This document shows positions 5,617 through 49,634 of a stretch of DNA of 64,000 nucleotides, piece after piece (position 1 is the first letter of the stretch; every line of letters begins with the position of its first letter). Below the pieces are notes generated by a model. That model was not told the DNA's origin. It ran no database searches and saw only the letters and a program-made list of their open reading frames with translations. Source of the DNA: a virus. The stretch covers positions 1-64,000 of the IMG/VR virus record IMGVR_UViG_3300025120_014919, one strand, 5' to 3'. A program made the translations under genes and the position numbers.

Positions 5617-5847
5617 TTCTTTTAAAGCTTGTTCAAGTCCTACTGAAGCTACACTTACACCTGGTTGAGGTTTTTCTTGATCATTTTGTAATGGAGCTAC
5701 AACCTCTTGCATTTTTGCAAATACATCTTGTTCTAATTTTACCTGTTGAGGGTCACGTTCTCTCATTACTGGTGCACCAGAAGATATACCTGTCTGGTTT
5801 ATTGAGGTTTTATTAACATTATGTTGATAAATATCCTCTAACCCCAT
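5578..5847 (-). CDS. Hypothetical protein
   Basis: 89-aa ORF overlapping the queD end; 3' overlap with phoH. Confidence 0.55.
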   Translation of the reverse strand: MGLEDIYQHNVNKTSINQTGISSGAPVMRERDPQQVKLEQDVFAKMQEVVAPLQNDQEKPQPGVSVASVGLEQALKELMNGVESLDDES

Positions 5848-6494
5848 GATGTTCCTTCAAATGGATTACTCATACCTTGAGTTACTTTATTATGTAATGG
5901 TGGAGTAGTTGGTTCATTTTTAACTTCGTCATTTTCTACTGCAATTGCTTCGATTTCCTTTTTCTTTAAATCAATATCAGTTAAAGTTCCTGTTTCTTGA
6001 TCAACCATACTACCAGGGTTTAAAGTAATATGACCAAAATCATGAGTTACATTTAATAGTTCCTCATATATAGCACTATTACCTTCATGTTCCCAAACTT
6101 CTACTTTAATAACTCTCACTCGATTGTTAGTTTGCTTAATTACAAACTTATTTGTATTTTCGTATACCCATTCAGCAGTTCTTTCAATACCAACCCCTTT
6201 ATCAGCAATACGTAAATCAATCATACCCTTCTCAGACATTAACTTAAATGTATCTAACTCTGGATCATCAGCAGCTACTACAGTTGTATGATCATATTGC
6301 TTCTCTAAAATATTTTTTATCTCTTTACAACCACCAAAATCGTATATCCAATTTTTATCATCTAATTCATCCGCTGTAAACCATAACTTACATTGTAATC
6401 TGTAACCATGAATTAATTTGCAATGACTATCTGCTCTCCACTGACGAAAGGCTGTACTACCCATCGGTATAATTTTTGTTGATACATATCTCAT
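5838..6494 (-). CDS. queD: 6-carboxytetrahydropterin synthase with C-terminal extension
   Basis: FRQWRADSHCKLIHGY, DFGG, DH, VEVWEH..NSA; start moved to ATG 6494 (TTGATT-N16-CATAAT-N6-ATG). Confidence 0.9.
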   Translation of the reverse strand: MRYVSTKIIPMGSTAFRQWRADSHCKLIHGYRLQCKLWFTADELDDKNWIYDFGGCKEIKNILEKQYDHTTVVAADDPELDTFKLMSEKGMIDLRIADKGVGIERTAEWVYENTNKFVIKQTNNRVRVIKVEVWEHEGNSAIYEELLNVTHDFGHITLNPGSMVDQETGTLTDIDLKKKEIEAIAVENDEVKNEPTTPPLHNKVTQGMSNPFEGTSWG

Positions 6495-6546
6495 ACTATT
6501 ATTATGATATAGATTCATCGAAAATCAACTTTTTTTTAAATAATAG

Positions 6547-6605: not shown

Positions 6606-7778
6606 TCACCTATATCTTTTTATAATATCCTCAAAATTTTCTTCGCTCGAATCTAAAGGTAACTCTTCTTGTGTAGGTGGCTGTAATTGATTTGCAAATC
6701 TGTATTGATTATCATTATTCTTATCTTTTAAAGTCATCATACCAGTTTCTTGATCTATATCTTGCAAAATATATGCTGCTCCACTAGTACCTTTAACTTC
6801 TTTACCTATTTGATCTCTAAATCTGTTAGCTTGTCTAATCATTTCTGATCTTTGTTCTTCTAAAGATCTACCAGCTTGTGATGCTGCAACTTTTATTTTA
6901 TCCATTACATTTCTAGGACTTAATTTTGGACTTCTTTTAGAACCTCCAGGTTTTCTTTGCTGGCTTTTCATACCTTCAGGTATATTATCAAAAAGAATTT
7001 TATGTACTTTTGGATCTTTTGTTTGACTTTGTGATTTAATATATTTTGTAAAGGAATTAACTTCATTAGGATGCTTTTTAAATATTGGTGTTAACTTATT
7101 TGTAGCTAAAGTTACAATTTCAACATCAGTTGGTTTACCATAATTATCATCTTGTAATAAAAATTTTATATAGATATTTTTATCTGCTTCATTTTTTGGA
7201 TCTCCAAAAAATTTACCAATTTCTGGAGCTGCTTGACTAGTACCATCTATAAAAGTTTTTTCAGTTTGTTGAGCTATTTCTTTTTTAGCCGCTTGTTTAC
7301 CTGCTTCAATATCAACACCTTTTATTGCAGCATCAACCTTTTTCATACCATTTTTATAATCTGCATCTTCAATTGAAGTTAACTGTTCACCTCTAGCTAA
7401 TTTATCATATGCATTCTTAAATTTAAGATCACCCATATAAACTTTTTTCAATTCTGGGCTCATTTCAGATTTTCCTTGTGTACCACCGCCTTTTAATTCT
7501 TGTTGTTGTTTTTTTGCTTTTAATTGTTCTTGTCTTGCTTGAGCAACTGCAGTATCACGTTCAGCACTTCTCATGTCATAAGCTCTTGTACCAGGTATCA
7601 TTGCTCTTACTGCATTAAATGCATTACCAAAACCACCACCACCGGTCGGTGCACTCGATTTTCTAATTTCTAAAATAGTTTTATTAAAATTACCTTTATT
7701 GAAAACTTTAGATATATTTGTGTTTTCATTTAAATTAAATTCTTTAGAAACTTTTTCAAATAATTCTTTATCTGTCAT
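6606..7778 (-). CDS. Hypothetical late protein, probable internal head protein
   Basis: TAAATA-N5-ATG; N-terminus MTDKELFEKVSKEFNLNEN; Lys/Gln-rich. Confidence 0.65.
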   Translation of the reverse strand: MTDKELFEKVSKEFNLNENTNISKVFNKGNFNKTILEIRKSSAPTGGGGFGNAFNAVRAMIPGTRAYDMRSAERDTAVAQARQEQLKAKKQQQELKGGGTQGKSEMSPELKKVYMGDLKFKNAYDKLARGEQLTSIEDADYKNGMKKVDAAIKGVDIEAGKQAAKKEIAQQTEKTFIDGTSQAAPEIGKFFGDPKNEADKNIYIKFLLQDDNYGKPTDVEIVTLATNKLTPIFKKHPNEVNSFTKYIKSQSQTKDPKVHKILFDNIPEGMKSQQRKPGGSKRSPKLSPRNVMDKIKVAASQAGRSLEEQRSEMIRQANRFRDQIGKEVKGTSGAAYILQDIDQETGMMTLKDKNNDNQYRFANQLQPPTQEELPLDSSEENFEDIIKRYR

Positions 7779-7811: not shown

Positions 7812-8864
7812 ATGTCCGAAAAAAATAAAAGTTATGAATGGTTAGGTGATGATGTAAGTGAAAGTGAACTTACAGGTGAGAAGGATATTATTGCAAAAGA
7901 AATAATGGGTGAAGAATATAGTAAGAGTTATTTTCCTCCTATTAGAGTTTATGATAATAAAGTTAAAGCTGATAGAAAGTATATTTCATCGTTACCTGAT
8001 TTACAAAATGGTCCATCAAGTTTAATTCAAGGTGCTGCAGTACCTATTCAACAAGTAGGTATACATAACTTTAAGTTACCTCTTACATATAAAAAGAGAG
8101 ATGGTAAAACTATTAATCTCGAAACTAGTGTAACTGGTAGTGTTAGTTTAGAAGCTCATAAGAAGGGTATTAATATGTCCCGTATTATGAGAAGTTTTTA
8201 TGATCATAAGGATGATCTATTTAGTATTGATAATATTAAAGATGTATTAGAGTCATATAGAGAAAATCTTAAATGCTTTGATTCAAGAATTATGCTTAAG
8301 ATTTCATACCCTATTAAGCAAACTAGTTTACGTAGTGGTTTAGAAGGTTATCAATATTATGATGTTGTATTTGAAGGTGATATTACTAAAGAAGGTAAAT
8401 TTAAAAAATATATTCACTTTGATTTTGTTTATTCATCTGCATGTCCTTGTAGTTTTGAATTAAGTGAACATGCTGAAAAGTATCGTAACCGTGCTACTGT
8501 ACCTCATAGTCAACGTAGTGTTGCAAGAGTTAGTGTACGCTTTGACGATATGTTATGGGTTGAAGATATACAAGAGTTATGCTTAGCAGCTCTTCAAACC
8601 GAGACTCAAGTAATGGTTAAGAGAGAAGATGAGCAAGCGTTTGCTGAATTAAATGGCTCTAATCTAAAGTTTGTTGAAGATGCAGTACGTTTAATGTATG
8701 AAAAGCTAAGTAGTGAATCCCGTATTAAAGACTTTAAGATTGTAGCATCTCATAATGAGAGTTTACATAGCCATAATGCAATATCAGTTATTGTAAAAGG
8801 GGTTGAAGGCGGCTTTTCTGCTGGTGTTGCTAGAGATGTATTTGAAACTACAGGTTTAAGATAA
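7812..8864 (+). CDS. folE2: GTP cyclohydrolase IB (FolE2)
   Basis: LPDLQ, IQQVGI, KGINMSRI, SACPCS, PHSQRS, VKREDEQAFA, FVEDAVR, ESLHSHNA; promoter TTGAAA-N16-TATAAT-N6-ATG. Confidence 0.93.
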   Translation: MSEKNKSYEWLGDDVSESELTGEKDIIAKEIMGEEYSKSYFPPIRVYDNKVKADRKYISSLPDLQNGPSSLIQGAAVPIQQVGIHNFKLPLTYKKRDGKTINLETSVTGSVSLEAHKKGINMSRIMRSFYDHKDDLFSIDNIKDVLESYRENLKCFDSRIMLKISYPIKQTSLRSGLEGYQYYDVVFEGDITKEGKFKKYIHFDFVYSSACPCSFELSEHAEKYRNRATVPHSQRSVARVSVRFDDMLWVEDIQELCLAALQTETQVMVKREDEQAFAELNGSNLKFVEDAVRLMYEKLSSESRIKDFKIVASHNESLHSHNAISVIVKGVEGGFSAGVARDVFETTGLR

Positions 8865-9509: not shown

Positions 9510-10157
9510 TTATACCAATACCTTATTTTTATCAAACCATGAATTAATATATTCATGTATACCGTAAATAAAATCTTCATTTTTATAATCAACTATATTT
9601 TTATAAAATTCAAAATATTTACTACTCAATAAAGTACAGTCATAACTTTTTATATTGTAATAATTATATAAAAAATGCTGACCATTAAGATTCAATACAT
9701 TAATTATATCGTTTTGATTTTTATCATAAAATAATTTTTGTAAATGCTTTAATTGTTTACATAATTTTTTAAAAAATATAGAATTATTATTATACATAAT
9801 ACTATTACATATATAACGATCTACTTTTCTACTGAATAAAACAGCATTTTTATTAAAAAATAATTCTTCAACATTTTTATAAAAAAAGATATCTATATCT
9901 GTATAAAAACCACCTTCGTAATCTAATATAAAAAATCTTGCAGCATCAATTTTTTCTATATTATAATTAAAACTATCAAATGTATCTAGAAAATAGTTAT
10001 ATTCTGTTTTTATTAAAGTTCTGCATCTATCTAAATCCCATAAATTATATTGCCAACTGGGATGATTGTCTAATAGAGATAATTGATGTTGTTTAAAATC
10101 TTCTGGATATTCACCTTTATCCCAAATTTGGTGAATTTTTTTAACTATTTTTGACAT
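9510..10157 (-). CDS. GT32/OCH1-like DxD glycosyltransferase
   Basis: KKIHQIW, HPSWQYNLWD, D.ARFFIL..EGGFYTDID. Confidence 0.85.
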   Translation of the reverse strand: MSKIVKKIHQIWDKGEYPEDFKQHQLSLLDNHPSWQYNLWDLDRCRTLIKTEYNYFLDTFDSFNYNIEKIDAARFFILDYEGGFYTDIDIFFYKNVEELFFNKNAVLFSRKVDRYICNSIMYNNNSIFFKKLCKQLKHLQKLFYDKNQNDIINVLNLNGQHFLYNYYNIKSYDCTLLSSKYFEFYKNIVDYKNEDFIYGIHEYINSWFDKNKVLV

Positions 10158-10897
10158 TTTTCTTTAAATGTTTCTTTAAATTTTTTAGCTCCATCTCCAG
10201 ACCACATAATAGAATCAATACTATGTGTTTTATCTTTATACTTACTATCTAATAATTTAAGAGTTAATTTATTTTCATCATAATATGTATGTAAAGCATA
10301 ATGATCTGCATTCCAACTAACATAATTACCTTCGGTAAAAATATAATTATTAATCTTTTGAATTAAATCCTTTACATTTTGATTATTTTTAAATAAAAGA
10401 AACCCTTCATTGCAAAATTTATCATTATCTTTTGGAGCTATTACTGAATATACATCCGACTGTAAATCATAAAAAATATCATCAAAGTTTTTTAAAGCTA
10501 TTGTATCGACGTCCAAAGAAAGAACGTTATAACCTTTCAATAATAATTCGTTTATAGATAAAAATCTTGAATGACATGTATAAAAACTGCGCGGGCTATA
10601 TAAAACTTTTTTTAAACCGAGTATATTTTTTATACCATATAAATGCTTTATTTCATATTTTTCTTTAGTTTTAAATAAAGTTCTTTTTTTACTTAATCCC
10701 GGATTATCAATTATTAGATTTATATTAGCGTATTTATTTTTAACTTCTTTTATTTGATCTTCGGTAAAATCTACCAATCTAACAAAAATTTTTAATTCTG
10801 TATTAACTGATTGTAATGAATCTAAAAAAGGATATAAAAATTTTAAATAATTATAATCAGTCGAGCAGGTTAATGCATTATTCGAAGTAGTTTTCAT
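10145..10897 (-). CDS. GT-A fold nucleotide-diphospho-sugar transferase
   Basis: RF, VLSLDVD, N.GF, W.AD motifs; operon context. Confidence 0.65.
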   Translation of the reverse strand: MKTTSNNALTCSTDYNYLKFLYPFLDSLQSVNTELKIFVRLVDFTEDQIKEVKNKYANINLIIDNPGLSKKRTLFKTKEKYEIKHLYGIKNILGLKKVLYSPRSFYTCHSRFLSINELLLKGYNVLSLDVDTIALKNFDDIFYDLQSDVYSVIAPKDNDKFCNEGFLLFKNNQNVKDLIQKINNYIFTEGNYVSWNADHYALHTYYDENKLTLKLLDSKYKDKTHSIDSIMWSGDGAKKFKETFKEKCQK

Positions 10898-11978
10898 ATT
10901 TACTTTTTCTCCTTACATCTAATGTAGTACAATGATGAGCACCTCCAAAAATTTCACAGTGTCTAAAAGGTGTACCTATAGCTTCTATTTTATATTTTTT
11001 TAAAACTTCGTTTAGTTTCTTTTCGTATTGCGGATGACATATTATTAATTCCTTTGATATACTAAATAGATTAAGTTCTATTCGAGGGGAAGCTAACTTT
11101 AAACCTTGTTTATTAAACTCATTTTCACTTCGCTCTCTCATTGGTATATGTATAAGATCCCATGACTGTAGTTCTTTTGGTAATCTTTCTTTAATAAAAT
11201 CTTTAGTAATAATTGCAAGACCTGGTCTCAATGGTAAAAAAGATGCATCTATATGGGAATCTGCTAGAGGAGCTGTTAAAACTTTATATTTTTCACCTAA
11301 CATATTTTGCAACCACACTGCACCAAGTCTTTGATTTTCATTTATTACATTCATCAATATATGACTACCTAATCTCATGCAATTTGCAGCATCAAATATA
11401 ATTTCATGACCGCAATCATAATAATTTTCATCTTGTTTTGAATCTACATAATATTGTCTACCATTATTTTCATCAATCCAAGATAAATCAAAACTATTAT
11501 CAGTCATTAAAGGTTTCGGTGCATGTACCCACGAACAACCATTCTTAAAATAATCTAAAAATAAATGATGTAATAAATTATTTTCAAAATAACGATATCG
11601 ACACGATGGTGGAGATTCAATAATCATATCACCTACAACCATTGCCATATCTCGTACATTTAATGCTGGGTGTATGGTACTTTCAAAAACCGGGGTAATA
11701 ACTTTTTGAATAGTTTCTGGTTTTTTAGGTCTTTTAACTTTAACTCCGAATGATTGTAATAGGGTTGCAAACTTTTCTATATCTTCCGAATGTTCTTCAC
11801 AGTGTCTTTTACTTATACTTTCTTTACCGAATTCATATGCTTTTGTATCGAAAAGATTTTCATGAAAAAAGAGTTTAAAGGTATAATCCAATAAAGGTAA
11901 GTTAGTTGGAAATCCATCACCAACAATTACTTCTTCAAGTTGATCCCATTCATTATGACTATTTACTATATTTTTCAT
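10878..11978 (-). CDS. L-arginine amidinotransferase (glycine/inosamine-phosphate type, StrB1/AGAT family)
   Basis: VNSHNEWDQLEEVIVG, RD, FDAA (Asp), HID (His), GGAHHCTTLDVRR (Cys): complete catalytic triad. Confidence 0.9.
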   Translation of the reverse strand: MKNIVNSHNEWDQLEEVIVGDGFPTNLPLLDYTFKLFFHENLFDTKAYEFGKESISKRHCEEHSEDIEKFATLLQSFGVKVKRPKKPETIQKVITPVFESTIHPALNVRDMAMVVGDMIIESPPSCRYRYFENNLLHHLFLDYFKNGCSWVHAPKPLMTDNSFDLSWIDENNGRQYYVDSKQDENYYDCGHEIIFDAANCMRLGSHILMNVINENQRLGAVWLQNMLGEKYKVLTAPLADSHIDASFLPLRPGLAIITKDFIKERLPKELQSWDLIHIPMRERSENEFNKQGLKLASPRIELNLFSISKELIICHPQYEKKLNEVLKKYKIEAIGTPFRHCEIFGGAHHCTTLDVRRKSKYENYFE

Positions 11979-12762
11979 CGAATATTTTCATTTCATTTAA
12001 TTGTTTCTCTAATGAATTAATATTTAAATTAAATTTTGTCGAAAGAGATCTATCTAAAATTTTATTAATTTTTTGATTTTCTATACTACTTGCTAGAGTT
12101 TTTTCAATGTTTATATTTAAAGAGTATATGTTATTAATCAATTTGCATAATTCATATTTTGATATTTTAGATGGGCTATGTAAATGTTTAACACCTTGCC
12201 ATAAAGTATCATTTACAATATTTTCTTTAATAAATTTAGCTAATTCTAACGCAGTTACCCCATTCCAAATACAATTATCATAACCATTAATAGATTTATT
12301 TTTATTTTCTAATAACCATTTAAATAAACCACTATATCTACCTATAAATGATGTTCTAATTATTGTACCGGCTTTAACTAATTTTTTTGATAAAGCATAT
12401 ATATCTTTTGCGTCAGTAGGATCATCTTCATTATAATTACCTTTATCTCCTGCAAATACACAATCAGAACAGATATGTATAAAGTGAGAATTATTTGAAT
12501 TACATATTTGATTTAATGAATTAGGAAAAGTAGAATTTATTAAAAATGTATTTTCAACCCCTACTTGTTTAATATTAGGTTTTAAAATACCTACACAATT
12601 AATAACAATATCTCCCGGGTTTAAAATAGATGTTAAAAACTTAAAATCTGTTGAAGCAGCATTAAAGTCTTTTCTTGTGAAAACTATACATTCAAAACTT
12701 TCTGATAAAAAGTTATTGATATATTTTCCAGCATTACCGTTACCTAAAATAATAATTTTCAT
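11959..12762 (-). CDS. rmlD: dTDP-4-dehydrorhamnose reductase-like SDR
   Basis: ILGNGNAG, INCVG, HICSDCVFAG, YALSK, WNGVT. Confidence 0.8.
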   Translation of the reverse strand: MKIIILGNGNAGKYINNFLSESFECIVFTRKDFNAASTDFKFLTSILNPGDIVINCVGILKPNIKQVGVENTFLINSTFPNSLNQICNSNNSHFIHICSDCVFAGDKGNYNEDDPTDAKDIYALSKKLVKAGTIIRTSFIGRYSGLFKWLLENKNKSINGYDNCIWNGVTALELAKFIKENIVNDTLWQGVKHLHSPSKISKYELCKLINNIYSLNINIEKTLASSIENQKINKILDRSLSTKFNLNINSLEKQLNEMKIFDEKYSK

Positions 12763-13382
12763 TTAAAACAATCAAGTTTTGATAAGTCTACTTTATATTC
12801 ATCACTGGATGAACTATCTTTATTAAAATTATTAACATTATAATAATTCTGTATACCAATAACTGCTTGTTCTGGTGACATATACATATGATAACCTATT
12901 TCTTCAACAGGGGTTGTAATCATATCATTATAAAATACAGAAGGTCTACCATCATATCTCATTTTTCTAAACCATTTATAAGCTTCTTTATCATTAGTAA
13001 GTATCATACCACCTTTACCAGTGGATAATATTTTTTTAAAATTGAAAGATAAACAATAAAACGTACCATTAACATACATATTTTTAGTAAAACGTTGAGC
13101 TGAATCGATAACCGGTAAGGGGTCTAACCTATAACAACCTGACCATTTTTTATCTATAAATTTAATATTATAACCAGCATGGATTATTTGCATTGGAACT
13201 GAAACATAGGTTCTTTTAGGTACATTTATAGTATTATCTTTATAATCTTTTTTATTATAACAATATTTTAATGATAGAAAAAGAGCATTAGTACAACTGT
13301 CAACTGCTATCGCATATTTACTACCCGCATACTCAGCTATAATTTCTTCAAATTTATCTACATTATCCCAAACAGTACTCAT
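12759..13382 (-). CDS. Short DegT/DnrJ/EryC1/StrS-family PLP aminotransferase (207 aa)
   Basis: FEE.IAEYAGSKYAIAVDSCTNAL, IDSAQ, SFNFKKILSTGKGGMILTND. Confidence 0.8.
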   Translation of the reverse strand: MSTVWDNVDKFEEIIAEYAGSKYAIAVDSCTNALFLSLKYCYNKKDYKDNTINVPKRTYVSVPMQIIHAGYNIKFIDKKWSGCYRLDPLPVIDSAQRFTKNMYVNGTFYCLSFNFKKILSTGKGGMILTNDKEAYKWFRKMRYDGRPSVFYNDMITTPVEEIGYHMYMSPEQAVIGIQNYYNVNNFNKDSSSSDEYKVDLSKLDCFK

Positions 13383-13999
13383 GATTTCTGATATATTAAA
13401 TTAAAACCTTCAGCATACAATCCATTACATTCCATACCTCGAAACATTGCATACGTTTTTATACCATCATATGATCTAGGATTTGGAAACTTTCTAACTT
13501 CATTTTTATATTCACAAAAACGTTCTATTTTAGAATTTAAATTAGTTAATGTTAATTCTTCATAATAATTACATTTAAAATTATTATTGAATGATTGTGT
13601 AGTTGATGATGGTACTTCATACATTAAGATCTTATCCGGGGAATGTTCTTGATATCTCCTTAAAACAACTTCACAAATTTCATGAACCGTTTTATGGTCT
13701 ATATTAAAATCATCTTTATTAGGTATAAAAACTATATTTGGTTTTAAATTATTGTATATATTTTCAATATTTTTTAATAATTTATTTTTTACAATATTAT
13801 ATGATTCATCTTGAAACGGTAAAATATGTACAGATGTAAAACAATTAGTAGCTTTCGCTATATGATTATCATCATCATTTTTTCTTACACCGCATATTAT
13901 TACATGAACTTCATTTCCAGCTTCAATATATTTATGAGCTGTACCACCGACTCCGAGTAGTTCATCATCTGCATGCGGGGCTATAATAAGAGTACTCAT
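13379..13999 (-). CDS. PIG-L/LmbE-family N-acetyl-sugar deacetylase
   Basis: APHADDELLGVGGT, DH, YEVPSS, RG....YAEGF; promoter TTGATT-N16-TATAAT-N6-ATG. Confidence 0.88.
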   Translation of the reverse strand: MSTLIIAPHADDELLGVGGTAHKYIEAGNEVHVIICGVRKNDDDNHIAKATNCFTSVHILPFQDESYNIVKNKLLKNIENIYNNLKPNIVFIPNKDDFNIDHKTVHEICEVVLRRYQEHSPDKILMYEVPSSTTQSFNNNFKCNYYEELTLTNLNSKIERFCEYKNEVRKFPNPRSYDGIKTYAMFRGMECNGLYAEGFNLIYQKS

Positions 14000-14029
14000 A
14001 ACTATATTATAAATACTTTACTGTAAAAA

Positions 14030-14950
14030 TCAATAATTTTTATTCAATATATATTCATAAAGTATTTTACTACCTTTAAGGAAATTAACTTTAGGTTCCC
14101 AGTTTATAAGTTTTTTAGCTTTAGTATTATCTACCACTTTACCTTTGTAATCACCTAATCTTTCTTCAGTATAAATAATTTTTACATCATTATTATGTAA
14201 TTCTTGAATTCTTTCAGCTACATTTTTTATAGATATTGTTTGAGCTCCTTCTAAGTTAATTATTTCGTTTTTTGCTTTTTCTTGTAAAGCTAATCTATTA
14301 CCTTTAGCATGGTCAGATACAAAAAGAAAATTTCTGTAAATTTTACCATCACCAGTTACAATTAACGGTTCATTATTAATAGCATTAGTAATAAATTTTG
14401 ACATTACTGTATCAGGATGACAGTTAGGCCCGTAAGCTATACCATACCTTAATATAGTAAAATTAATACCTTTTACTTTCTGATAATTTCGAATAATAGC
14501 TTCACATGTTAGTTTACACGTTGTATAAATATGCTCACTATTTGTTATAGATAAATTTGACTCTTCATTTACTTCAGTATTTTCACATACACTATATACC
14601 CAAACTGTAGACGAAAATATTATTCTATTAATATTCAATTCATACATCGCATCTAATGTATTTGTTAACGTTATTATATTTGTACTAACTGCATATTTTA
14701 TATCATTATGATTTTCTTTACTATCAGATACTGCAGCAAACATATAAACTGCATCATATTTTTTTAATGATAAACAATGTAATAATTTTTTATAATCTAA
14801 AGCATTAACTTGTTTATATTCAACCCGTTCATCTATTAAAGTACGTTTATCTTTATCTAGAATAGTAACATTATACCCATTATTAGCTAATTCTATAGCA
14901 GTATTGGTACCTATAAAACCATTACCACCTATAATAGCTATATTTTTCAT
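14030..14950 (-). CDS. NAD-dependent sugar epimerase/dehydratase
   Basis: GGNGFIG, SSTVWVY, YTTCK, LRYGIAYGP; promoter TTGATT-N16-TAAAAT-N6-ATG. Confidence 0.88.
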   Translation of the reverse strand: MKNIAIIGGNGFIGTNTAIELANNGYNVTILDKDKRTLIDERVEYKQVNALDYKKLLHCLSLKKYDAVYMFAAVSDSKENHNDIKYAVSTNIITLTNTLDAMYELNINRIIFSSTVWVYSVCENTEVNEESNLSITNSEHIYTTCKLTCEAIIRNYQKVKGINFTILRYGIAYGPNCHPDTVMSKFITNAINNEPLIVTGDGKIYRNFLFVSDHAKGNRLALQEKAKNEIINLEGAQTISIKNVAERIQELHNNDVKIIYTEERLGDYKGKVVDNTKAKKLINWEPKVNFLKGSKILYEYILNKNY

Positions 14951-14980: not shown

Positions 14981-15514
14981 TCAACCTACTCTGTACCAAG
15001 GAGTTTCTAATTTATCGATATGGGTTTTAAAAATTTTATATTTTTCACATACTAAGGTAGTTCTAACTTTTTTACATTTTTTAACTTCATTAACACTATG
15101 AACTTTATTCGGAGGTATAGTAACTGAACTATTAGTAACTGGTTTAATAGAAGTTTCATCAATAACTATCTCACCACCTATCATTTCCGGATCAATATCA
15201 ACATAGTAAACTTCAGTCTCGGGTAAAAATATCATAAAACTTTTATCCTTTTCTTTTACAGTATCGAATAAATCAGTATCTACATGAGGTTTTATTCTTC
15301 CAGTTTCACCTGCAAAAAAACCTATAAAATTATATACGTTATAATTACCAGTAATAAAATGTTTTAAAAAATCAGGAACTTCATCTTTTTTAAATGTAAC
15401 TGAAAAACTTCTAAGAGTAGATTTATTATCAAGGTATTCACTATTATGTATCCAATTATAGATTTCATTACGATAATCTTCACTTAATAAATTCGTTTTA
15501 AGTTCTAAACTCAT
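14981..15514 (-). CDS. 2OG-Fe(II) oxygenase
   Basis: PHVD (HxD), GGE, HSV, R.TLV. Confidence 0.7.
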   Translation of the reverse strand: MSLELKTNLLSEDYRNEIYNWIHNSEYLDNKSTLRSFSVTFKKDEVPDFLKHFITGNYNVYNFIGFFAGETGRIKPHVDTDLFDTVKEKDKSFMIFLPETEVYYVDIDPEMIGGEIVIDETSIKPVTNSSVTIPPNKVHSVNEVKKCKKVRTTLVCEKYKIFKTHIDKLETPWYRVG

Positions 15515-16383
15515 AAATCATTTAAATTATCTTTACAAATACTGTATATAGTTTCCCCTCCATCATCTTCTAAAAAGTCTGGAGATGGTTGTAATATAGT
15601 CGGGTATTGATCAAAAATAATACTCGGTTCATTTGATTCGTCTATCATTTTAAAACTATCTACAACCGAAGTATTAATTAAGTCTTTAATAGTTTGAATT
15701 TCTAACATTTCTTCTTCATTATCTAAAAAGTTTTTGGATTCTTCATCTATTTCATTTAAAGATTTTGCTTGTCTACCTTTAATAATTTCTTTAAAAATTT
15801 CTTTAAATTTATTTAAATTATCTATTTTATCGTTTTTATATTCTTCAATAGATATATTAAAAATACAACTGAATAAACATTCATCATATTCTATAGTAGA
15901 TGATTTAAATAAAGTAAAATATGTATTAAATAAATCTTTGTTATAATCTTTATTATATTTCGATATATCTTCTATCAATGATATTTTTTTAACTTTATCA
16001 TTTTCTACTTTTTCTTCAACTAATTTAATTATTTTTTCGTTATATTTTTCAACTATATCATTATTGGAATCAAGTAATTCTTCTGGACTTTCAAAATTAA
16101 ATTCATCCAAATAGCGAAACTCTCCTTCTAATAATGGGTATTGTGAATTAAAATAAATTTTTACCCACTCGTTTTTATATAAATCATATAAAACATATGT
16201 TTCCATATCTAATAAATCATCTTCTATTCTTTCTTTTGTACTATCTATATATTTTTCATTCTTAGTTACAAAGGAAAGGTGTTTTAAACCGTCTTCAGCT
16301 TGATATTTTAAACAAAATATAGTTTTTTCGGCTAATAGCATATAGTAAGAATATACACTATCAAAAAGTATTTCTTCTTTCAT
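15511..16383 (-). CDS. Acidic hypothetical protein (possible fibre assembly chaperone)
   Basis: 290-aa ORF following a late structural-like gene. Confidence 0.55.
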   Translation of the reverse strand: MKEEILFDSVYSYYMLLAEKTIFCLKYQAEDGLKHLSFVTKNEKYIDSTKERIEDDLLDMETYVLYDLYKNEWVKIYFNSQYPLLEGEFRYLDEFNFESPEELLDSNNDIVEKYNEKIIKLVEEKVENDKVKKISLIEDISKYNKDYNKDLFNTYFTLFKSSTIEYDECLFSCIFNISIEEYKNDKIDNLNKFKEIFKEIIKGRQAKSLNEIDEESKNFLDNEEEMLEIQTIKDLINTSVVDSFKMIDESNEPSIIFDQYPTILQPSPDFLEDDGGETIYSICKDNLNDL

Positions 16384-16386
16384 TTA

Positions 16387-16968
16387 TTATGCGTCGTCGC
16401 TTGTCTTTTGGAGGCAGTTATATTTTTTAGTACCACCTCCATATGTAACGTTTACTAATTTATTAATTAATGATCCAGTTAAACCATCTTTAAAACGTAT
16501 TCTATAGTTTCCGTCATTTTTACTTCCATAACTATGATTACTAGCAGCTGCAATTGCAGCTGCATCAGAAGCTACAGCAGCACAAGTGGTAAAAGAAGAT
16601 GTATTATTAATGCTATAGGCAAAACTTTTCTTACCATCGCTACCAGTAACTACTGTATCAGGGTCCATAGAAATTTTAATTGCACCATTATTAGCGTCAC
16701 TATAATAATTAGGTGATTCTTGATTAGTTATAATTGTACCAGTTGTAATTGATGAGCAATACATATCACCAAATTTTATATTAGTAAGACCAGTAGCTCC
16801 TAGAGGCGCGCATAGTTTATTTTTAAATAAATCTCTAGATTTACAAACTGATATAGGTCTGTTACCGCAACTAGAATTAACTGGGTTCACCCTATTACGG
16901 GTAAATATAGTTCGCATTCTTGTAGCGCATACCCTACCACTTATTGGTATATTTCCTTCATCTGCCAT
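16387..16968 (-). CDS. Late Gly/Ser/Thr/Cys-rich protein, possible virion surface or fibre-tip protein
   Basis: TAAATA-N5-ATG; 7 Cys in 193 aa. Confidence 0.6.
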   Translation of the reverse strand: MADEGNIPISGRVCATRMRTIFTRNRVNPVNSSCGNRPISVCKSRDLFKNKLCAPLGATGLTNIKFGDMYCSSITTGTIITNQESPNYYSDANNGAIKISMDPDTVVTGSDGKKSFAYSINNTSSFTTCAAVASDAAAIAAASNHSYGSKNDGNYRIRFKDGLTGSLINKLVNVTYGGGTKKYNCLQKTSDDA

Positions 16969-16986
16969 AATATTATTTATTAGATA

Positions 16987-17256
16987 TTATTTTTTCTTCC
17001 AATTAACTCTTTTAGAAGATTTCTTATTATACATCTTATTTTTAATTTTCTTACATGCAGCTTTGGTTGGCCTACAAGCCGGATAACTACCGCCAGATTT
17101 TTTTGACTTCCTCCCGCAAGGTCCTCCAGTTTTGCAATTTATCCAACCACTAAATTTTTTACCTGTCTTAGGATCTTTACCTCCGCGTTTAAACCATTGA
17201 TGAAGGCTATCACTAGCTTCATTTAAGTAAAACTCATATAGATCATCAAAATTCAT
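16987..17256 (-). CDS. Small basic Cys/Lys-rich protein of marine T4-like phages
   Basis: SLHQWF..W..C..G.PCGR...YPACRP; N-terminus MNFDDLYEFYLNEA. Confidence 0.7.
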   Translation of the reverse strand: MNFDDLYEFYLNEASDSLHQWFKRGGKDPKTGKKFSGWINCKTGGPCGRKSKKSGGSYPACRPTKAACKKIKNKMYNKKSSKRVNWKKK

Positions 17257-18004: not shown

Positions 18005-18316
18005 TTACCATTTTTTGCATGACCAGTAGCCTGCAGTTGTTTTATCCTTCTTTTGATCGCATTTATGCCGGGCTCTGAAAGATCTACGAGCTGCTGGATT
18101 AGATTTGCGTATTCTCATTGTTTTCCTTTTTGCAGAAGTACCACCATGACCAAAATTAACCTTTTTTACGTTCCCGGTCTTAGGATTTTTAACATATACT
18201 TTAAACTTCTTTACATCACCCCTTGTAGGTTTATTAAGAGTTACCTTTCTGCCTTTGTATTCTGCGTCTTCATCAAATGCTTCCATAAGAGAATAATATA
18301 GTTTATCGAATGTCAT
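18005..18316 (-). CDS. Basic protein conserved in T4-like cyano/pelagiphages
   Basis: AEYKGRKVTLNKP..GDVKKFKVYVK..VNFG..RRSFRARHKC...GYWSC. Confidence 0.75.
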   Translation of the reverse strand: MTFDKLYYSLMEAFDEDAEYKGRKVTLNKPTRGDVKKFKVYVKNPKTGNVKKVNFGHGGTSAKRKTMRIRKSNPAARRSFRARHKCDQKKDKTTAGYWSCKKW

Positions 18317-18321
18317 GTAAT

Positions 18322-18334
18322 TATTTAATAAATA
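18322..18334. promoter_or_regulatory. Back-to-back divergent late promoters
   Basis: TATTTA-A-TAAATA, each 5 nt from an ATG (18316 minus, 18340 plus). Confidence 0.8.
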
Positions 18335-18339
18335 ATAAT

Positions 18340-18864
18340 ATGGATAATGATGCTAATCTAATTTTTGAACAATATAAATCGTTAAACGAAATGAGTGGGT
18401 TAGGACCTATGATTGGTAAAATGGTAAATGTACCAGGTCCAGGTTCACAAAATACAGCTTCTAAAGTAGTTGTATTAAAACTTAAGGGAGACGAAGATTC
18501 ATCTAAATGTGAAGATGGAGAAGCAGTATTTATCCAAGCTGGTGATCAAAATGAAAGTGATTGCGGTTGTGATGATTGTAATGATGATGATTATGATGGT
18601 GAATTAGATATGGCAAGAGCTGAATTACTTAAAGCAGCAGAGTATGCAACTAAGTTATTTAACCATCTTGAAAATTTAGATAATTTAGAAGGTTGGACAG
18701 CTTCAAAAATTACAAAAGCTGCTGATTACTTATCATCAGTCTACCATGCATTAGAATATGATGCATTAGATGCTGATGTTGAAGATGAAGAAGAAGATGA
18801 TGATATAGAAGTAGATGTTGATGATATGACCAAAACTGCTAAAGAAACTGGTTTTGGGGCTTAA
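18340..18864 (+). CDS. Acidic probable internal head protein
   Basis: Start corrected to ATG 18340 (MDNDANLIFEQY); MARAEL..LEGW..SKITKAADYL motif seen in T4-like head proteins. Confidence 0.7.
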   Translation: MDNDANLIFEQYKSLNEMSGLGPMIGKMVNVPGPGSQNTASKVVVLKLKGDEDSSKCEDGEAVFIQAGDQNESDCGCDDCNDDDYDGELDMARAELLKAAEYATKLFNHLENLDNLEGWTASKITKAADYLSSVYHALEYDALDADVEDEEEDDDIEVDVDDMTKTAKETGFGA

Positions 18865-20858
18865 ACTAATTTATTATCAAATATACGTTTAATATTTTCG
18901 TCCATCGAACCATATAAGTCTTGAATAAGCTCTTTTCTACCATCATCATCAGATGTTTTATATAATTCTCTTATTTGAGATGCACTTCTAATATCTTTAC
19001 CGAGTAAATTAAAATCCATAGTAGGTAAAATTGCAATATAACCGTGCTTCGAACCATATGCCATTTCTTTTAAACTTTTATATGGTTGAAAATAACTTGA
19101 AGTACCATCTTTTTTTAGTCCGAACTTAAACCGTGGTTTATCACCTTCCATGTCTTTTTCCGAAACAACAAATATAATTTTAGTTTTTTCTAAATCATAG
19201 TTACTAGTTATTTCATCTGCTAAATATGGATTATTTGTCATTTCTACAAATTTAGGATCTATACCTGCACTTTGGATCATCATTTGTTTTTCTCCGAATT
19301 CAAAAGGTGAATTATTGTCATTAGTTTTACCAGAAGTAGAGATATATATATCAGCAGTGGGAAACTGTTTAGTTAATTTATTATATATCGATGCATGACC
19401 TTTATGAAAGGGGTGAAATCTCCCCGGATATATAACTACTATTTTTGTTAAATCTTCTGCATCTTCAAATTCATTTAACATTTTATACATTTCATTAAAT
19501 GATCCGAACTTTTTTGAACCAGTTGGATGAGCTTGCAATCTTGTACCTTCACCTGAATTAAAAACTGGTGGGTTACTAATATATGATTCTTGGTTCTCCG
19601 GTGATGATGGTTTACCGGTACCAAAATTAGCGCGACTAAATTCTTCCCTATCTACCATTTTAGTAATTTCTGCACCTGCAGCTGTTACTTTTGATAAAGC
19701 AAAACCTTCTGGAGCAGTTGTTTGCCAGTTATTAGGACTTTCATCAAGATATGTACCTAACAGATCATTTTTAGTTATTTCATTAAAGATTTTAATTAAA
19801 TTATTTTTTAAATTAGCTATAATTTTAGTAATTTCGAAAGCATTTTTTATAGAAGGTTTAAGTTTTTGAAGAGATTTTAATGTAGATTTCATTTGCTCTA
19901 GCTTCTTAGCTTTACCTTTTTCACTTTTTAGTCTTTCTAAATCTTTAGAAAATCTACTACTAATATAATTAACATATTCTTCAGTTGACATCGATGTATC
20001 TTCTAAAAATCTACCTGATCTAATTTCATAATTAATATAAGTTTTAAGTGTACTAGTGTAATCATCTAATGCACTAAAATCTACCTTATCGGCTAATTTA
20101 AGCAGTTGTTTTTTCTTCGTTTTAACGTCTTTTAAAAGTAATTTACTAAAAGATGATTTATTATTTTTAGGTTTGTTAGCTAATACATTAAAAACGAAAA
20201 CTGTATTTGAAGGAGTGAATTCATCTGGTGAAGAAGTATATTTTTTAACCTTTAATATACCATTTTGCACCATATATTCAATATGAACTGCAACCCCTAT
20301 CTTTGATTTAGCTATTTGATCACCATAAGGACTATTTTCACTTACTGCATATTTAATAGTATTAGGGGTAAAGGTTAAAAATTTATTTTCATTTTTAACC
20401 CCATCGATAGTTTCTGGTGTTTCATATACTCTCATTTGCGGGTCAAACATATAATCCATTTGGTAAATACCTTTAAGATTTAAAGATGGTAAATACCGCA
20501 GGGCTAACTTTAATTTATCTGCTAAACCACCAGTACCGTGATTTGTAGTAATATCTTCTTCTGTATAGTTAATTTTTGGATTTTTTGCAAAAGCTGATTT
20601 ACTAGCTACAAAAAATTTATTATTAGTATCTACCCCAGCAACTATAGCAGGTGCTCCGTCGAATTTAGTAGATATTTTATAATCAGATTCATCTACAAAA
20701 TATGATATAGAAGATTCTATTTGGTTAATAGCTTCTATAACACCTTGCTTACCTTTATTAAGTATATTTTCTTCTAAATGGTCAATATGCTTTACTGCTC
20801 CGTCAATTGCATCGAAGAATTCTAATAATACGGTATGGTGTTGTTTAAATGTTTTCAT
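18861..20858 (-). CDS. Fusion: ATP-dependent ligase-like nucleotidyltransferase (DUF6267-like) + HxGH cytidylyltransferase-like domain
   Basis: HIDHLEE, STKFDGAPAI (KxDG), EGFA, KMVDREEFSRANF; C-terminal PGRFHPFHKGH..SASQIR; N-terminus MKTFKQHHTVLLE. Confidence 0.75.
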   Translation of the reverse strand: MKTFKQHHTVLLEFFDAIDGAVKHIDHLEENILNKGKQGVIEAINQIESSISYFVDESDYKISTKFDGAPAIVAGVDTNNKFFVASKSAFAKNPKINYTEEDITTNHGTGGLADKLKLALRYLPSLNLKGIYQMDYMFDPQMRVYETPETIDGVKNENKFLTFTPNTIKYAVSENSPYGDQIAKSKIGVAVHIEYMVQNGILKVKKYTSSPDEFTPSNTVFVFNVLANKPKNNKSSFSKLLLKDVKTKKKQLLKLADKVDFSALDDYTSTLKTYINYEIRSGRFLEDTSMSTEEYVNYISSRFSKDLERLKSEKGKAKKLEQMKSTLKSLQKLKPSIKNAFEITKIIANLKNNLIKIFNEITKNDLLGTYLDESPNNWQTTAPEGFALSKVTAAGAEITKMVDREEFSRANFGTGKPSSPENQESYISNPPVFNSGEGTRLQAHPTGSKKFGSFNEMYKMLNEFEDAEDLTKIVVIYPGRFHPFHKGHASIYNKLTKQFPTADIYISTSGKTNDNNSPFEFGEKQMMIQSAGIDPKFVEMTNNPYLADEITSNYDLEKTKIIFVVSEKDMEGDKPRFKFGLKKDGTSSYFQPYKSLKEMAYGSKHGYIAILPTMDFNLLGKDIRSASQIRELYKTSDDDGRKELIQDLYGSMDENIKRIFDNKLV

Positions 20859-36481: not shown

Positions 36482-37231
36482 ATGGTTAAAAAGAATAAAA
36501 TAGTAATTACGCTTAGCGGTGGTATGGATTCATCTGTTTTACTTTATAAAGCAGCTGAACAATATAAAGAAGTACACACCGTAACTTTCAATTATGGTCA
36601 ACGTCATAGTAAAGAGTTAGAAGCAGCTGAAAAGCAATTAGTAAATGCTAAGCATGACTTCCCTAACGTTACATTTACCAATAAATTATTAGACGTTACT
36701 TATATTAAGGATATAGCTGATACATCTTCCCTTACTAATGATAATATAGATACACCTGATGTAAAAGATATAATGGGTGAGGCTCAACCTAAATCATATG
36801 TACCATTCCGTAATTTAATGTTTTTGAGCATATTATTATCATATGCAGAAAAAATGGAAGCCGATGAAGTATGGTACGGTGCAGCAGAAGCAGATAGTTT
36901 AGCAGGTTATTGGGATGGTTCAGTACAGTTTGTCGATAAGATGAATCAGATTTGCTTGCTAAACCGTGAAGTAGATGTTAGAGTAAGGGCTCCCCTACTA
37001 AAAATGAGTAAAAAAGAGATTATTTTGAATGGAGTAGAGATTGGAGTCAATTTTGCTGATACATATACTTGTTATTCTGGGGAATATCCATGCGATGCAA
37101 ATAGCGCAAGTAGTGCTCTAAGATTAAAAGGGTTTGTAGACGCGGGACTACAAGATCCATTACGTTATAAACAGCAAGATAAGTTAGATTCAGTTTATAG
37201 AGATAATAATTGTAAATCTATATTAGATTAA
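36482..37231 (+). CDS. queC: 7-cyano-7-deazaguanine synthase
   Basis: LSGGMDS, FNYGQRH..E, YVPFRNLMFLS, YWD, PLL..SK, TYTCY. Confidence 0.92.
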   Translation: MVKKNKIVITLSGGMDSSVLLYKAAEQYKEVHTVTFNYGQRHSKELEAAEKQLVNAKHDFPNVTFTNKLLDVTYIKDIADTSSLTNDNIDTPDVKDIMGEAQPKSYVPFRNLMFLSILLSYAEKMEADEVWYGAAEADSLAGYWDGSVQFVDKMNQICLLNREVDVRVRAPLLKMSKKEIILNGVEIGVNFADTYTCYSGEYPCDANSASSALRLKGFVDAGLQDPLRYKQQDKLDSVYRDNNCKSILD

Positions 37232-38582: not shown

Positions 38583-39254
38583 ATGTGTGGTATATATTGT
38601 AGCAATGATTTGACTTCTTTCGAAGTTTTACAAGAAGCTAATAAAAAGCGGGGTAATTTTTCAACTGGCATATTTTATTGCTATAATAAAGCTAATTATA
38701 GAGTACTCAAGGAAAAGAATAATATAAACTGGAATAAAACTAAAATACCAAATCAAAAAGGGCATTTATATCTCGGCCATAACCAAGCCCCTACTGAAAC
38801 CGGTAGAGAATGGAATGAAGAAACGTCACACCCGTTTTGGGTTGGTGATTGGATAGTAGCTCATAATGGAGTGTTAACTAATTATGAGGAATTAATAGAT
38901 GAATATATACCAATGCATGATAACCCGGTAGATAGTAGCATAATACCAGCATTATTAGATGAATTTGAATATACACACGGTCCTTGTGAAGATGCTGAAA
39001 CTGAAGTACAAAATATATTATACACAATAGAAAAACTTAAAGGTACATTTGCTTTATGGATAGTGAACATAAAAACGATGAACATTTATATAGCAAGACA
39101 AGGTAGTACGTTGTTTTACAAAGACGCTAATATATCATCAATTAAGGGTCAAGGTTATAAAGAAGTATCACAAGGAGTACTTTACAACTATTCATATGAA
39201 GGTCTAACAGAGTTAGACGGATTTGTATATGACTCACCATTTTTAACATTATGA
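38583..39254 (+). CDS. Class II (Ntn) glutamine amidotransferase, stand-alone GAT domain
   Basis: MCGI (catalytic Cys2), RG, LGH.QAPT, HPF, VAHNGVL.N, VDS. Confidence 0.88.
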   Translation: MCGIYCSNDLTSFEVLQEANKKRGNFSTGIFYCYNKANYRVLKEKNNINWNKTKIPNQKGHLYLGHNQAPTETGREWNEETSHPFWVGDWIVAHNGVLTNYEELIDEYIPMHDNPVDSSIIPALLDEFEYTHGPCEDAETEVQNILYTIEKLKGTFALWIVNIKTMNIYIARQGSTLFYKDANISSIKGQGYKEVSQGVLYNYSYEGLTELDGFVYDSPFLTL

Positions 39255-39724
39255 ACATAAATTACGTAACAATTAACGAATGTAACGATTTAGATAAACT
39301 TAGATTTATTAAATTTATTTACGATAATACGGATTCATTTATATTGAATACGTTCGGCCATACTTGGTCAGGTAGAAACTGGTGGGAAAAATTTCCTATT
39401 GAAGTATGTGTAGACGATGCCGGCCAAGTTTTAGGTTTACATGCTTATACCACTAATGATAAGGCAAAAGGTACAATGAAAACATATTATATAGTTACCT
39501 CGAAGGAAGTAAGAGGTAAAGGTGTAGCAAAACTTTTAATTCTAAATGCAATTTACAAACATAAAGATAAAATTAAAAATTATTATGTTAATACAGATGT
39601 TAGAAGTAATGGTGTACAATTTTTTAAAAAATTATTAGGTGATAATTTTACTATTGAAAGTAACGATTTCAATTCCCAAGATATAATTTTTGAGGAACCT
39701 ATTTATAATATAATAGATGAGTAA
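39251..39724 (+). CDS. GNAT acetyltransferase
   Basis: IVTSKEVRGKGVAKLL motif A; N...FF. Confidence 0.75.
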   Translation: MNINYVTINECNDLDKLRFIKFIYDNTDSFILNTFGHTWSGRNWWEKFPIEVCVDDAGQVLGLHAYTTNDKAKGTMKTYYIVTSKEVRGKGVAKLLILNAIYKHKDKIKNYYVNTDVRSNGVQFFKKLLGDNFTIESNDFNSQDIIFEEPIYNIIDE

Positions 39725-40055
39725 ACTGAAGACAACTGGTAAACCTCGTCAGTTTTCAACTGGCGCACAACGAGATAATGCTGATGGTAAATTGCGTATG
39801 AGTTTATTACCTCATAATGCTTTAAATGGAGTAATGATGAGATATTTACAAGGAGCTGATACATACGGTGAAAATAATTGGAAGAAGGGTATGAAACATT
39901 CAGTTTTATATGATAGTGCAATGAGACATTTAATGCAAGATTTTACAGGTGATGATAGTGAAGATCATTTAGGAGCTGCTTTATGGAATATTATGGGTAT
40001 GATGTGGAATAGAGATAATAATCTTCATATGGATGATAGAAAAGAATATGAGTAG
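39717..40055 (+). CDS. dATP/dGTP diphosphohydrolase (DUF5664-like)
   Basis: FSTGAQRD..GK.RMSLLP, GA..YG.NNW.KG, SA.RHL, EDHL.AA.WN. Confidence 0.85.
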   Translation: MSKLKTTGKPRQFSTGAQRDNADGKLRMSLLPHNALNGVMMRYLQGADTYGENNWKKGMKHSVLYDSAMRHLMQDFTGDDSEDHLGAALWNIMGMMWNRDNNLHMDDRKEYE

Positions 40056-49632: not shown

Positions 49633-49634
49633 TA

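Follow-up and report, generated by a model that had tools for sequence, protein, structure and literature searches.

We examined a candidate glycan-building operon on a 64,000-nucleotide stretch of viral DNA (the window), the opening 64 kb of an IMG/VR viral record of 105,613 bases (IMGVR_UViG_3300025120_014919) estimated to be ~50% complete. The operon contains a predicted amidinotransferase gene embedded among genes for sugar-tailoring enzymes and glycosyltransferases. The record encodes a gp43-type DNA polymerase, UvsX, a gp41-type helicase, a gp46-like SbcC, TerL and a tail sheath – T4-like markers that bear out the phage origin assigned to this DNA by an earlier note made from the sequence alone. 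Because the DNA polymerase is only ~31% identical to that of any cultured phage, the contig is placed as a deep-branching T4-like myovirus. The guanine-cytosine (GC) content of the window is ~30%.

The open reading frames (ORFs) of interest run head to tail on the minus strand from position 16968 to 9510. Pfam, NCBIfam and PDB searches recovered all seven genes listed in the earlier note – epimerase-like, deacetylase, aminotransferase, reductase, amidinotransferase and two glycosyltransferases – intact and on the minus strand between 14950 and 9510. The last six overlap their neighbors, as described there, by 4, 4, 20, 20 and 13 nucleotides from the deacetylase through the final glycosyltransferase. 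The boundary of that list did not hold, since the same tight run extends upstream through a predicted oxygenase gene (14981–15514) and two further ORFs (15511–16383 and 16387–16968). The block had also been called very AT-rich; its GC fraction is 0.225–0.297 across 9–16 kb versus ~0.30–0.33 in the flanks, an AT excess of about 5–7 points that is real but not dramatic.

The amidinotransferase (10878–11978, minus strand; 366 amino acids; P0001) has no match in Pfam or NCBIfam, and its family was assigned by PDB searches. A single-sequence phmmer search aligned it over its full length (residues 3–365) with the L-arginine-dependent amidinotransferases SxtG (5e-45), HsvA (8e-45), StrB1 (2e-44) and AGAT (3e-37). 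A profile built from 18 homologues matched the same structures at 2e-67 to 4e-58, with StrB1 – about 30% identical to the phage protein – at the top (2e-67) and AGAT at 4e-58. Consistent with an intact active site, the Asp/His/Cys triad reported in the earlier note is confirmed: D196 (FDAAN), H242 (SHID) and C350 (HHC) align with AGAT D254, H303 and C407. D110 (NVRD), D244 and S297 likewise align with AGAT D170, D305 and S355, the acidic residues and serine that bind the guanidino group, and all six positions are invariant in the 18 homologues. Enzymes of this family, which belongs to the pentein superfamily, move the amidino group of arginine to an active-site cysteine and then to a primary amine acceptor, and we predict the same arginine-dependent chemistry for the phage enzyme.

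Homologues of this protein are publicly annotated as ‘glycine amidinotransferase’. The ‘300-flap’ loop of AGAT, which is said in the paper on the StrB1 structure to narrow the AGAT site for glycine, carries a three-residue deletion in the phage profile (‘ltd...sHID’ versus ‘kdpnpMHID’ in AGAT). The Pro-Asn-Pro stretch is absent, and the profile alignment thus lacks the complete flap (Asn300, Met302) that marks glycine-specific AGAT. Because the loop aligned with the flap is three residues shorter, the alignment does not support the glycine label.

Upstream of the amidinotransferase lie genes whose predicted products could make its acceptor. The first is an extended short-chain dehydrogenase/reductase (SDR) of 306 amino acids (14030–14950, minus strand; PF01370, 3e-41), whose closest solved structure is the Thermotoga maritima UDP-Glc/GlcNAc 4-epimerase 4zrm (5e-33). 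It contains an SST...YTTCK (YxxxK) signature and has SSTVWVY at the position of the dehydratase Thr-Asp-Glu motif. Without that motif it is not classed as an RmlB-type 4,6-dehydratase; the best matches are 4-epimerases, and ‘epimerase-like’ is the safer label for this GalE-like protein. The next gene encodes a predicted PIG-L/LmbE-family de-N-acetylase (13379–13999, minus strand; 206 amino acids; PF02585, 1e-16, 61.7 bits against a cut-off of 28.2), whose zinc-ligand motifs, ‘APHADDE’ and ‘DHKTVH’, align with those of the LmbE-related structure 2ixd (4e-5). To our knowledge, all characterized PIG-L/LmbE enzymes act on N-acetylglucosamine (GlcNAc) already linked to an aglycone.

The following gene (12759–13382, minus strand; P0121) encodes a DegT-family pyridoxal phosphate (PLP)-dependent aminotransferase of only 207 amino acids, about half the usual size, which we call mini-DegT. 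Its Pfam match (PF01041, 1e-23) falls in two stretches, covering only profile positions 24–94 and ~183–277. Compared with the two-domain architecture of about 360–390 amino acids, the C-terminal domain is missing entirely, along with one beta-alpha unit. Two catalytic residues are nonetheless kept and align with PDB members: the pyridine-nitrogen aspartate of DSAQ (D93) and the Schiff-base lysine of SFNFKK (K117). Together with T58, Y59 and S61 – a T-Y-x-S motif that we read as PLP-contacting – these are invariant in 25–28 mini-DegT homologues. The AlphaFold2 (AF2) model (pLDDT 90) found only nucleoside diphosphate (NDP)-sugar aminotransferases among its top Foldseek matches: perosamine synthase, ArnB, PseC, DesV, WbpE and PglE (TMq 0.60–0.69; TMt ~0.38 of the targets covered). 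Because 28 dereplicated homologues of 185–240 amino acids keep the catalytic residues, mini-DegT is a minimal variant rather than a fragment.

Between mini-DegT and the amidinotransferase lies a gene for a putative RmlD-like NDP-4-keto-sugar reductase (11959–12762, minus strand; 267 amino acids). It matches PF04321 at 1e-12, TIGR01214 at 2e-14 (far below the cut-off) and the structure 2ggs at 4e-11, with its YALSK aligned as YxxxK. Two predicted glycosyltransferases follow the amidinotransferase on the minus strand. The first (10145–10897; 250 amino acids), whose gene overlaps that of the amidinotransferase by 20 nucleotides, is a GT-A enzyme of PF03407 (2e-9), a family we take to include CAZy GT77, with a DVD motif at residue 129. 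The second (9510–10157; 215 amino acids) is a GT32-type enzyme (PF04488, 1e-12) whose DXD motif, DID, lies at residue 87. No membrane or hydrophobic segment was found in any protein of the cluster, and both transferases are predicted to be soluble.

The oxygenase gene that extends the run upstream (orf177; 14981–15514, minus strand; 177 amino acids) has no match in Pfam, NCBIfam or PHROGs. Its predicted product contains H77-x-D79...H139...R151 – the HxD...H iron triad and 2-oxoglutarate (2OG)-binding arginine – which is invariant in 11 homologues. The AF2 model (pLDDT 93) matched, by Foldseek, Dictyostelium PhyA (6t8m), PolD, the Pseudomonas putida prolyl-4-hydroxylase (P4H) and a chlorovirus collagen P4H (E-values 2e-6 to 1e-5; TMq 0.55–0.6), and Atlas feature matches pointed to PF13640 clusters (score 0.96). 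By motif and by a model with the double-stranded beta-helix fold, orf177 is thus predicted to be a small P4H-like 2OG-Fe(II) oxygenase acting on a protein or a sugar; PolD is a nucleoside-sugar oxygenase. It could make a keto group or hydroxylate a protein acceptor.

We asked whether the association with sugar genes extends beyond this contig by surveying the neighborhoods of related amidinotransferases, a check proposed in the earlier note. There are 362 homologues in the protein database at E ≤ 1e-10, at least 120 of them at ≥50% identity and many on contigs of 100–240 kb. Scanning IMG/VR gave 165 viral loci, of which 80 with flanks were kept; ORFs were called, neighbors were clustered, and the loci were reduced at 90% identity to 52 groups – 22 close (48–100% identity) and 30 distant (23–33%, cyanophage-like). 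In 48 of the 52 dereplicated loci a sugar gene lies within 6 kb of the amidinotransferase, which supports the proposed linkage.

Among the close groups, mini-DegT or PIG-L is present in all 22 despite rearrangement. PIG-L occurs in 19, the SDR in 17, the RmlD-like gene in 15 and a Pfam-recognized glycosyltransferase in 21, and the GT-A gene lies directly downstream of the amidinotransferase in 11. At four of these loci (L013, L016, L017 and L019), GT-A, GT8 and radical S-adenosylmethionine (SAM)/SPASM genes stand between the amidinotransferase and a DegT-RmlD-SDR-PIG-L block. A subclade at 48–51% identity keeps PIG-L without mini-DegT, surrounded by GT8, GT31, GT32 and GT-A genes and an asparagine-synthase-like amidotransferase. 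Glycosyltransferase content differs among close relatives, some of which have five or more paralogues of GT-A in addition to GT8, GT31 and GT32, as expected of a diversifying glycan island.

The distant groups share other partners. A gene of the UDP-glucose/GDP-mannose-dehydrogenase family is present in 24 of 30, and a gene of 172 amino acids (cluster c2) in 27 of 30. Cluster c2 is called a 2OG oxygenase only from the annotation of its member in Synechococcus phage S-SCSM2R (ORF308), and hhalign showed no relation between c2 and the cluster of orf177 (c12). Ten of the 30 have mini-DegT within 6 kb, and in nine of these it abuts or overlaps the amidinotransferase. Neighbor clusters c2, c4, c9, c13 and c18 have no match in Pfam, NCBIfam or PHROGs, and PDB profile searches with c4 and c9 gave nothing significant. 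Among cellular genomes, a scan with two peptide patterns, which may miss other loci, found only 12 Streptomyces/Kitasatospora loci (32–33% identity), none with homologues of the window's sugar genes nearby. The linkage is thus conserved in dozens of other phages, through mini-DegT or PIG-L in every close group and through mini-DegT in a third of the distant ones, and such phages probably build a glycan with a positively charged guanidino sugar. The loss of linkage that the earlier note would have counted against its idea was therefore not seen.

We reasoned that the acceptor of the amidino group is an amino sugar because DegT and PIG-L represent two co-encoded routes to a primary amine on a sugar. 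Our favored reading, to which we give slightly better than even odds (roughly 0.55), is that the amidinotransferase acts on an amino sugar of the pathway encoded alongside it and that the GT-A enzyme of the overlapping gene transfers the product into a glycan. On this view a T4-like phage would use the block from 16968 to 9510 to assemble a glycan with soluble enzymes in the cytoplasm. The starting point would be a nucleotide sugar of the host, uridine diphosphate (UDP)-GlcNAc for example, whose oxidation to a keto sugar could fall to the GalE-like SDR, to the 2OG oxygenase or to the 4,6-dehydratase-like SDRs at 48775–50564; mini-DegT would then convert the keto group to an amine. The amidinotransferase would load its active-site cysteine with the amidino group from L-arginine and pass that group to the sugar amine, producing a guanidine, and the overlapping GT-A enzyme would transfer the product, with GT-A and GT32 building a short glycan. 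PIG-L may free a second amine, or supply the amine itself in relatives without mini-DegT. Amidination could occur on the NDP-sugar or after transfer, and the acceptor may instead be a cyclitol, a glycoside or another amine.

Two regions outside the block encode further candidate sugar enzymes. A glutamine amidotransferase, a GT2-like transferase and a small cytidylyltransferase are encoded at 38583–41132 (the transferase and cytidylyltransferase at 40033–41132), and a second RmlD-like gene and the two 4,6-dehydratase-like SDRs lie at 47469–50564. These SDRs could supply the keto sugar.

Several points weigh against the amino-sugar reading. We know of no AGAT-family enzyme that acts on an NDP-sugar or a glycoside; those known to us use small amines or a phosphorylated cyclitol as acceptors. 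The origin of the keto sugar is not obvious within the block because its SDR appears nearest to 4-epimerases and lacks Thr-Asp-Glu. Neither mini-DegT nor PIG-L lies within 6 kb in 20 of the 30 distant groups. The mini-DegT family is found at no fewer than 594 viral loci in IMG/VR and an amidinotransferase at only 11 of 79 sampled, so most mini-DegT products are not amidinated. Scans for promoters, terminators and T4 late promoters found fewer sites than in shuffled sequences and gave no reading of expression timing. Finally, the gene identities, intact catalytic residues and conserved linkage are observed, and from them we infer the substrate, the product, the order of steps and the target. 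The earlier note had proposed a guanidino sugar attached to virion proteins, DNA or the host surface; the survey upholds its placement of the amidinotransferase within a phage sugar pathway, and the acceptor, product and attachment site remain at the level of proposal. Mini-DegT loci among the matches listed (L097–L175) are usually paired with SDRs only and, because only 11 of the 79 sampled carry an amidinotransferase, amidination looks like an add-on that only some phages append to a widespread amino-sugar module.

As the target of the glycan, a phage protein ranks first, perhaps modified where the P4H-like oxygenase has hydroxylated it, because that oxygenase is encoded beside PF03407 and GT32 transferases and because glycosyltransferase content varies among close relatives; this is our leading guess. 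A more tentative extension takes in T4-like and jumbo phages from aquatic habitats as well as phages of Campylobacter. Their arginine-dependent amidinotransferase would act on either an NDP-amino sugar or a glycoside freed of its N-acetyl group, giving a guanidino sugar, a kind of monosaccharide not known from any glycoconjugate. Displayed on virion proteins, it would lend the particle fixed positive charges and so change how the particle adsorbs, how stable it is or how it is recognized – a picture we hold at somewhat less than even odds.

Several other ORFs are of note here. One of 188 amino acids, 11% of them proline, lies just after gp32 (45457–46023, plus strand) and is the only proline-rich ORF in the 105 kb; collagen-like G-X-Y repeats were found nowhere in the 105-kb fragment. 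In many distant loci (L036, L037 and L063–L081), proteins of 244 and 415 amino acids are encoded directly after the amidinotransferase. The 415-residue consensus has a repetitive glycine-rich middle and a conserved GWVCLG...W.NFG C-terminus; it looks like a fiber or structural protein and is a possible hint at the glycan target.

At the head of the operon, orf290 (15511–16383, minus strand; 290 amino acids) is very acidic, with a net charge of about −32, and orf193 (16387–16968, minus strand; 193 amino acids) is rich in Ser, Thr, Gly and Cys. Neither matches a family in Pfam, NCBIfam or PHROGs, an Atlas search of orf290 gave no usable match, and both are weakly conserved in close relatives. 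Small neighboring ORFs within 16987–17256, 18005–18316 and 18310–18864 also have extreme charges (orf184, about −31; orf89, +18; orf103, +20) and no family match. Beyond these, a 665-residue fusion of DUF6267 (PF19782, 1e-78) and a cytidylyltransferase-like domain (18861–20858, minus strand) adjoins the island in several relatives at 45–80% identity.

The best surviving alternative, though an unlikely one, is that the cluster makes a small soluble metabolite – an aminoglycoside-like or pseudo-oligosaccharide compound carrying a guanidino cyclitol or sugar glycoside – directed at host translation or at competitors. Clusters for aminocyclitol antibiotics draw on the same enzyme families: StrB1 tops the profile matches, and the DegT family includes StsC/BtrR-type aminotransferases. 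PIG-L presumably corresponds to the 2′-N-acetylparomamine deacetylases and the RmlD-like protein to StrL. All cluster proteins are soluble, as such a pathway would allow, and the S-SCSM2R homologues have been labeled ‘antibiotic synthesis genes’ (PMC12801897). Set against this, the scanned cluster ORFs match no inosose synthase, inositol dehydrogenase, cyclitol kinase or exporter family, and the Streptomyces-type homologues occur without homologues of the window's sugar genes nearby. The many and variable glycosyltransferases of relatives also suggest diversification of an oligosaccharide rather than a fixed metabolite.

Modification of DNA, with the glycan or amidino group forming a base hypermodification that blocks restriction, perhaps together with 7-deazaguanine genes, is quite unlikely. 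DNA glycosylation is known among T4-like phages. The cluster's enzymes are soluble, and a cationic group on DNA could aid packaging and nuclease evasion. Genes for FolE2 (7812–8864) and QueD/PTPS (5838–6518) lie just downstream, with QueC at 36482–37231. These FolE2 and QueD neighbors reflect synteny, being linked only in collinear close relatives: they are lost in L013, L016, L017, L019, L020, L032 and nearly all distant loci, where the sugar genes stay. The 105-kb fragment contains no TGT/DpdA, ThyA-like hydroxymethylase or radical SAM QueE, a weak argument given that it represents only ~50% of the genome. The absence of TGT/DpdA and radical SAM genes from the fragment, together with a linkage that vanishes in rearranged and distant relatives, led us to reject the deazaguanine connection as the principal explanation. 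DNA glycosylation through a hydroxymethyl-pyrimidine is likewise without a ThyA-like gene in this half of the genome, and the fragment thus gives no support to the earlier suggestion that DNA is the attachment site. The narrow active-site channel that we take to be typical of the AGAT/StrB1 family would also be ill-suited to polymer-bound amines.

Between QueD and FolE2 lies a 390-residue ORF (orf390; 6606–7778, minus strand) with no match in Pfam, NCBIfam, PHROGs or PDB. It is 34–46% identical in relatives whose flanking genes are 74–98% identical and, because of this difference, appears to be fast-evolving.

It is about as improbable that the amidinotransferase works on its own as an auxiliary metabolic gene, producing guanidinoacetate, homoarginine or HsvA-like amidinated polyamines and having no part in the sugar island around it. 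The public glycine annotation favors this, the polyamine amidinotransferase HsvA is as close as StrB1 in the single-sequence search, and four of the 52 loci have no recognized sugar gene nearby. The gene is, however, translationally coupled to sugar genes on both sides, and its linkage to them is kept over 23–100% identity and through rearrangements, with the aminotransferase abutting it in distant lineages; the shortened flap-aligned loop is also unlike glycine-specific AGAT. Least probable is an exported glycan that remodels the host lipopolysaccharide or capsule to exclude superinfecting phages: phage-encoded O-antigen modification is well known and the variable, transferase-rich islands resemble O-antigen loci, but a lipid-linked route to the surface, and with it the host-surface attachment suggested earlier, is made unlikely by a cluster of soluble proteins without a membrane anchor and by 105 kb without a multi-pass flippase, polymerase, polyprenyl-phosphate transferase or any other multi-pass membrane protein, even though host enzymes or the other half of the genome could still supply export functions.

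If the amino-sugar reading is correct, the product would be the first of its kind, since we know of no other glycan that contains a guanidino sugar, and the enzyme would be the first of the AGAT family shown to act on a sugar – a tool for making permanently charged carbohydrates. The only natural guanidino precedent we know of is the cyclitol streptidine; zanamivir is a synthetic guanidino sugar. With 165 viral relatives in IMG/VR and the 362 database homologues, the system is not a one-contig curiosity, and the half-size DegT protein, found at 594 or more viral loci, deserves attention in its own right as a minimal PLP enzyme. The reading would also correct the label ‘glycine amidinotransferase’ used in auxiliary-metabolic-gene surveys, one of which discusses viral creatine biosynthesis. 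The literature searched contained no paper with the term ‘guanidino sugar’ and none linking an amidinotransferase to nucleotide sugars in phages. The statement in the earlier note that no such phage pathway has been described thus stands for that literature, though the genes themselves had already been annotated in phages CP220 (PMC2853527) and S-SCSM2R (PMC12801897). What the window adds is a version with PIG-L, RmlD-like and GalE-like genes in a deep-branching, low-GC T4-like lineage.

Two cultured and tractable phages carry versions of the module, which makes the idea directly testable. In Campylobacter phage CP220/F379, gp086 (31% identity, 5e-52) lies among five radical SAM and two GT-A genes; in CP220, Timms et al. 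(2010) had recorded a ‘putative glycine amidinotransferase’ to which they gave no function (PMC2853527). The amidinotransferase of S-SCSM2R (ORF309) is 28% identical and belongs to a module spanning ORF305 to ORF310; the genes there run as glycosyltransferases, then mini-DegT (ORF305), radical SAM, a glycosyltransferase, the annotated 2OG oxygenase of cluster c2 (ORF308), the amidinotransferase and GT2. ORF305 (195 amino acids), annotated as ‘AHBA synthase’, is a mini-DegT 52% identical to that of locus L054. Three genes of this module are those called ‘antibiotic synthesis genes’ (PMC12801897), a label that our favored reading would, if true, correct. In both phages the amidinotransferase is flanked by GT-A transferases and radical SAM enzymes; they differ from the window in being rich in radical SAM genes and in lacking PIG-L, RmlD-like and GalE-like genes. 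S-SCSM2R also has a second, shorter ‘glycine amidinotransferase’ beside KdsA/KdsB and 2OG oxygenases (locus L176, 17354–20337; ORF266–269), and ORF266 and ORF269 were found in the proteome of purified virions (PMC12801897).

Comparison with characterized enzymes and pathways places the phage system between several of them. Like AGAT (L-arginine:glycine amidinotransferase, PDB 1jdw), from which the public label derives, the phage enzyme has homology over its full length (3e-37 by sequence, 4e-58 by profile) and the six conserved active-site residues; unlike AGAT, it has a loop three residues shorter without Pro-Asn-Pro, and it sits in a sugar-tailoring context rather than one of creatine or guanidinoacetate. 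Viruses are known to glycosylate their virions with rare amino sugars, as in giant-virus fibril glycans and mycobacteriophages, and Skp1-type hydroxyproline glycosylation pairs a P4H with GT-A transferases. The window shares with these a predicted NDP-amino-sugar pathway and soluble GT-A enzymes, here with a P4H-like oxygenase beside PF03407 and GT32; it differs in its amidinotransferase, since we know of neither that enzyme nor a guanidino sugar in those systems, and in that a protein target is only a suggestion here.

The closest parallel is the streptidine branch, of streptomycin biosynthesis, in which the DegT-family enzyme StsC acts before StrB1 (L-arginine:inosamine-phosphate amidinotransferase, PDB 1bwd). 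The same two families are adjacent in the phage, for a predicted conversion of keto group to amine to guanidine, and the catalytic Cys, His and Asp of StrB1, the best PDB profile match (2e-67), are identical in position. The genes belong to a phage rather than an actinomycete, the aminotransferase is a minimal form of 207 amino acids, and the scanned cluster ORFs match no inositol dehydrogenase, kinase or phosphatase family. Because the phage module, unlike the streptidine branch, is embedded among GT-A, GT32 and GT8 transferases, its substrate is likely to be a glycan sugar rather than a free cyclitol phosphate.

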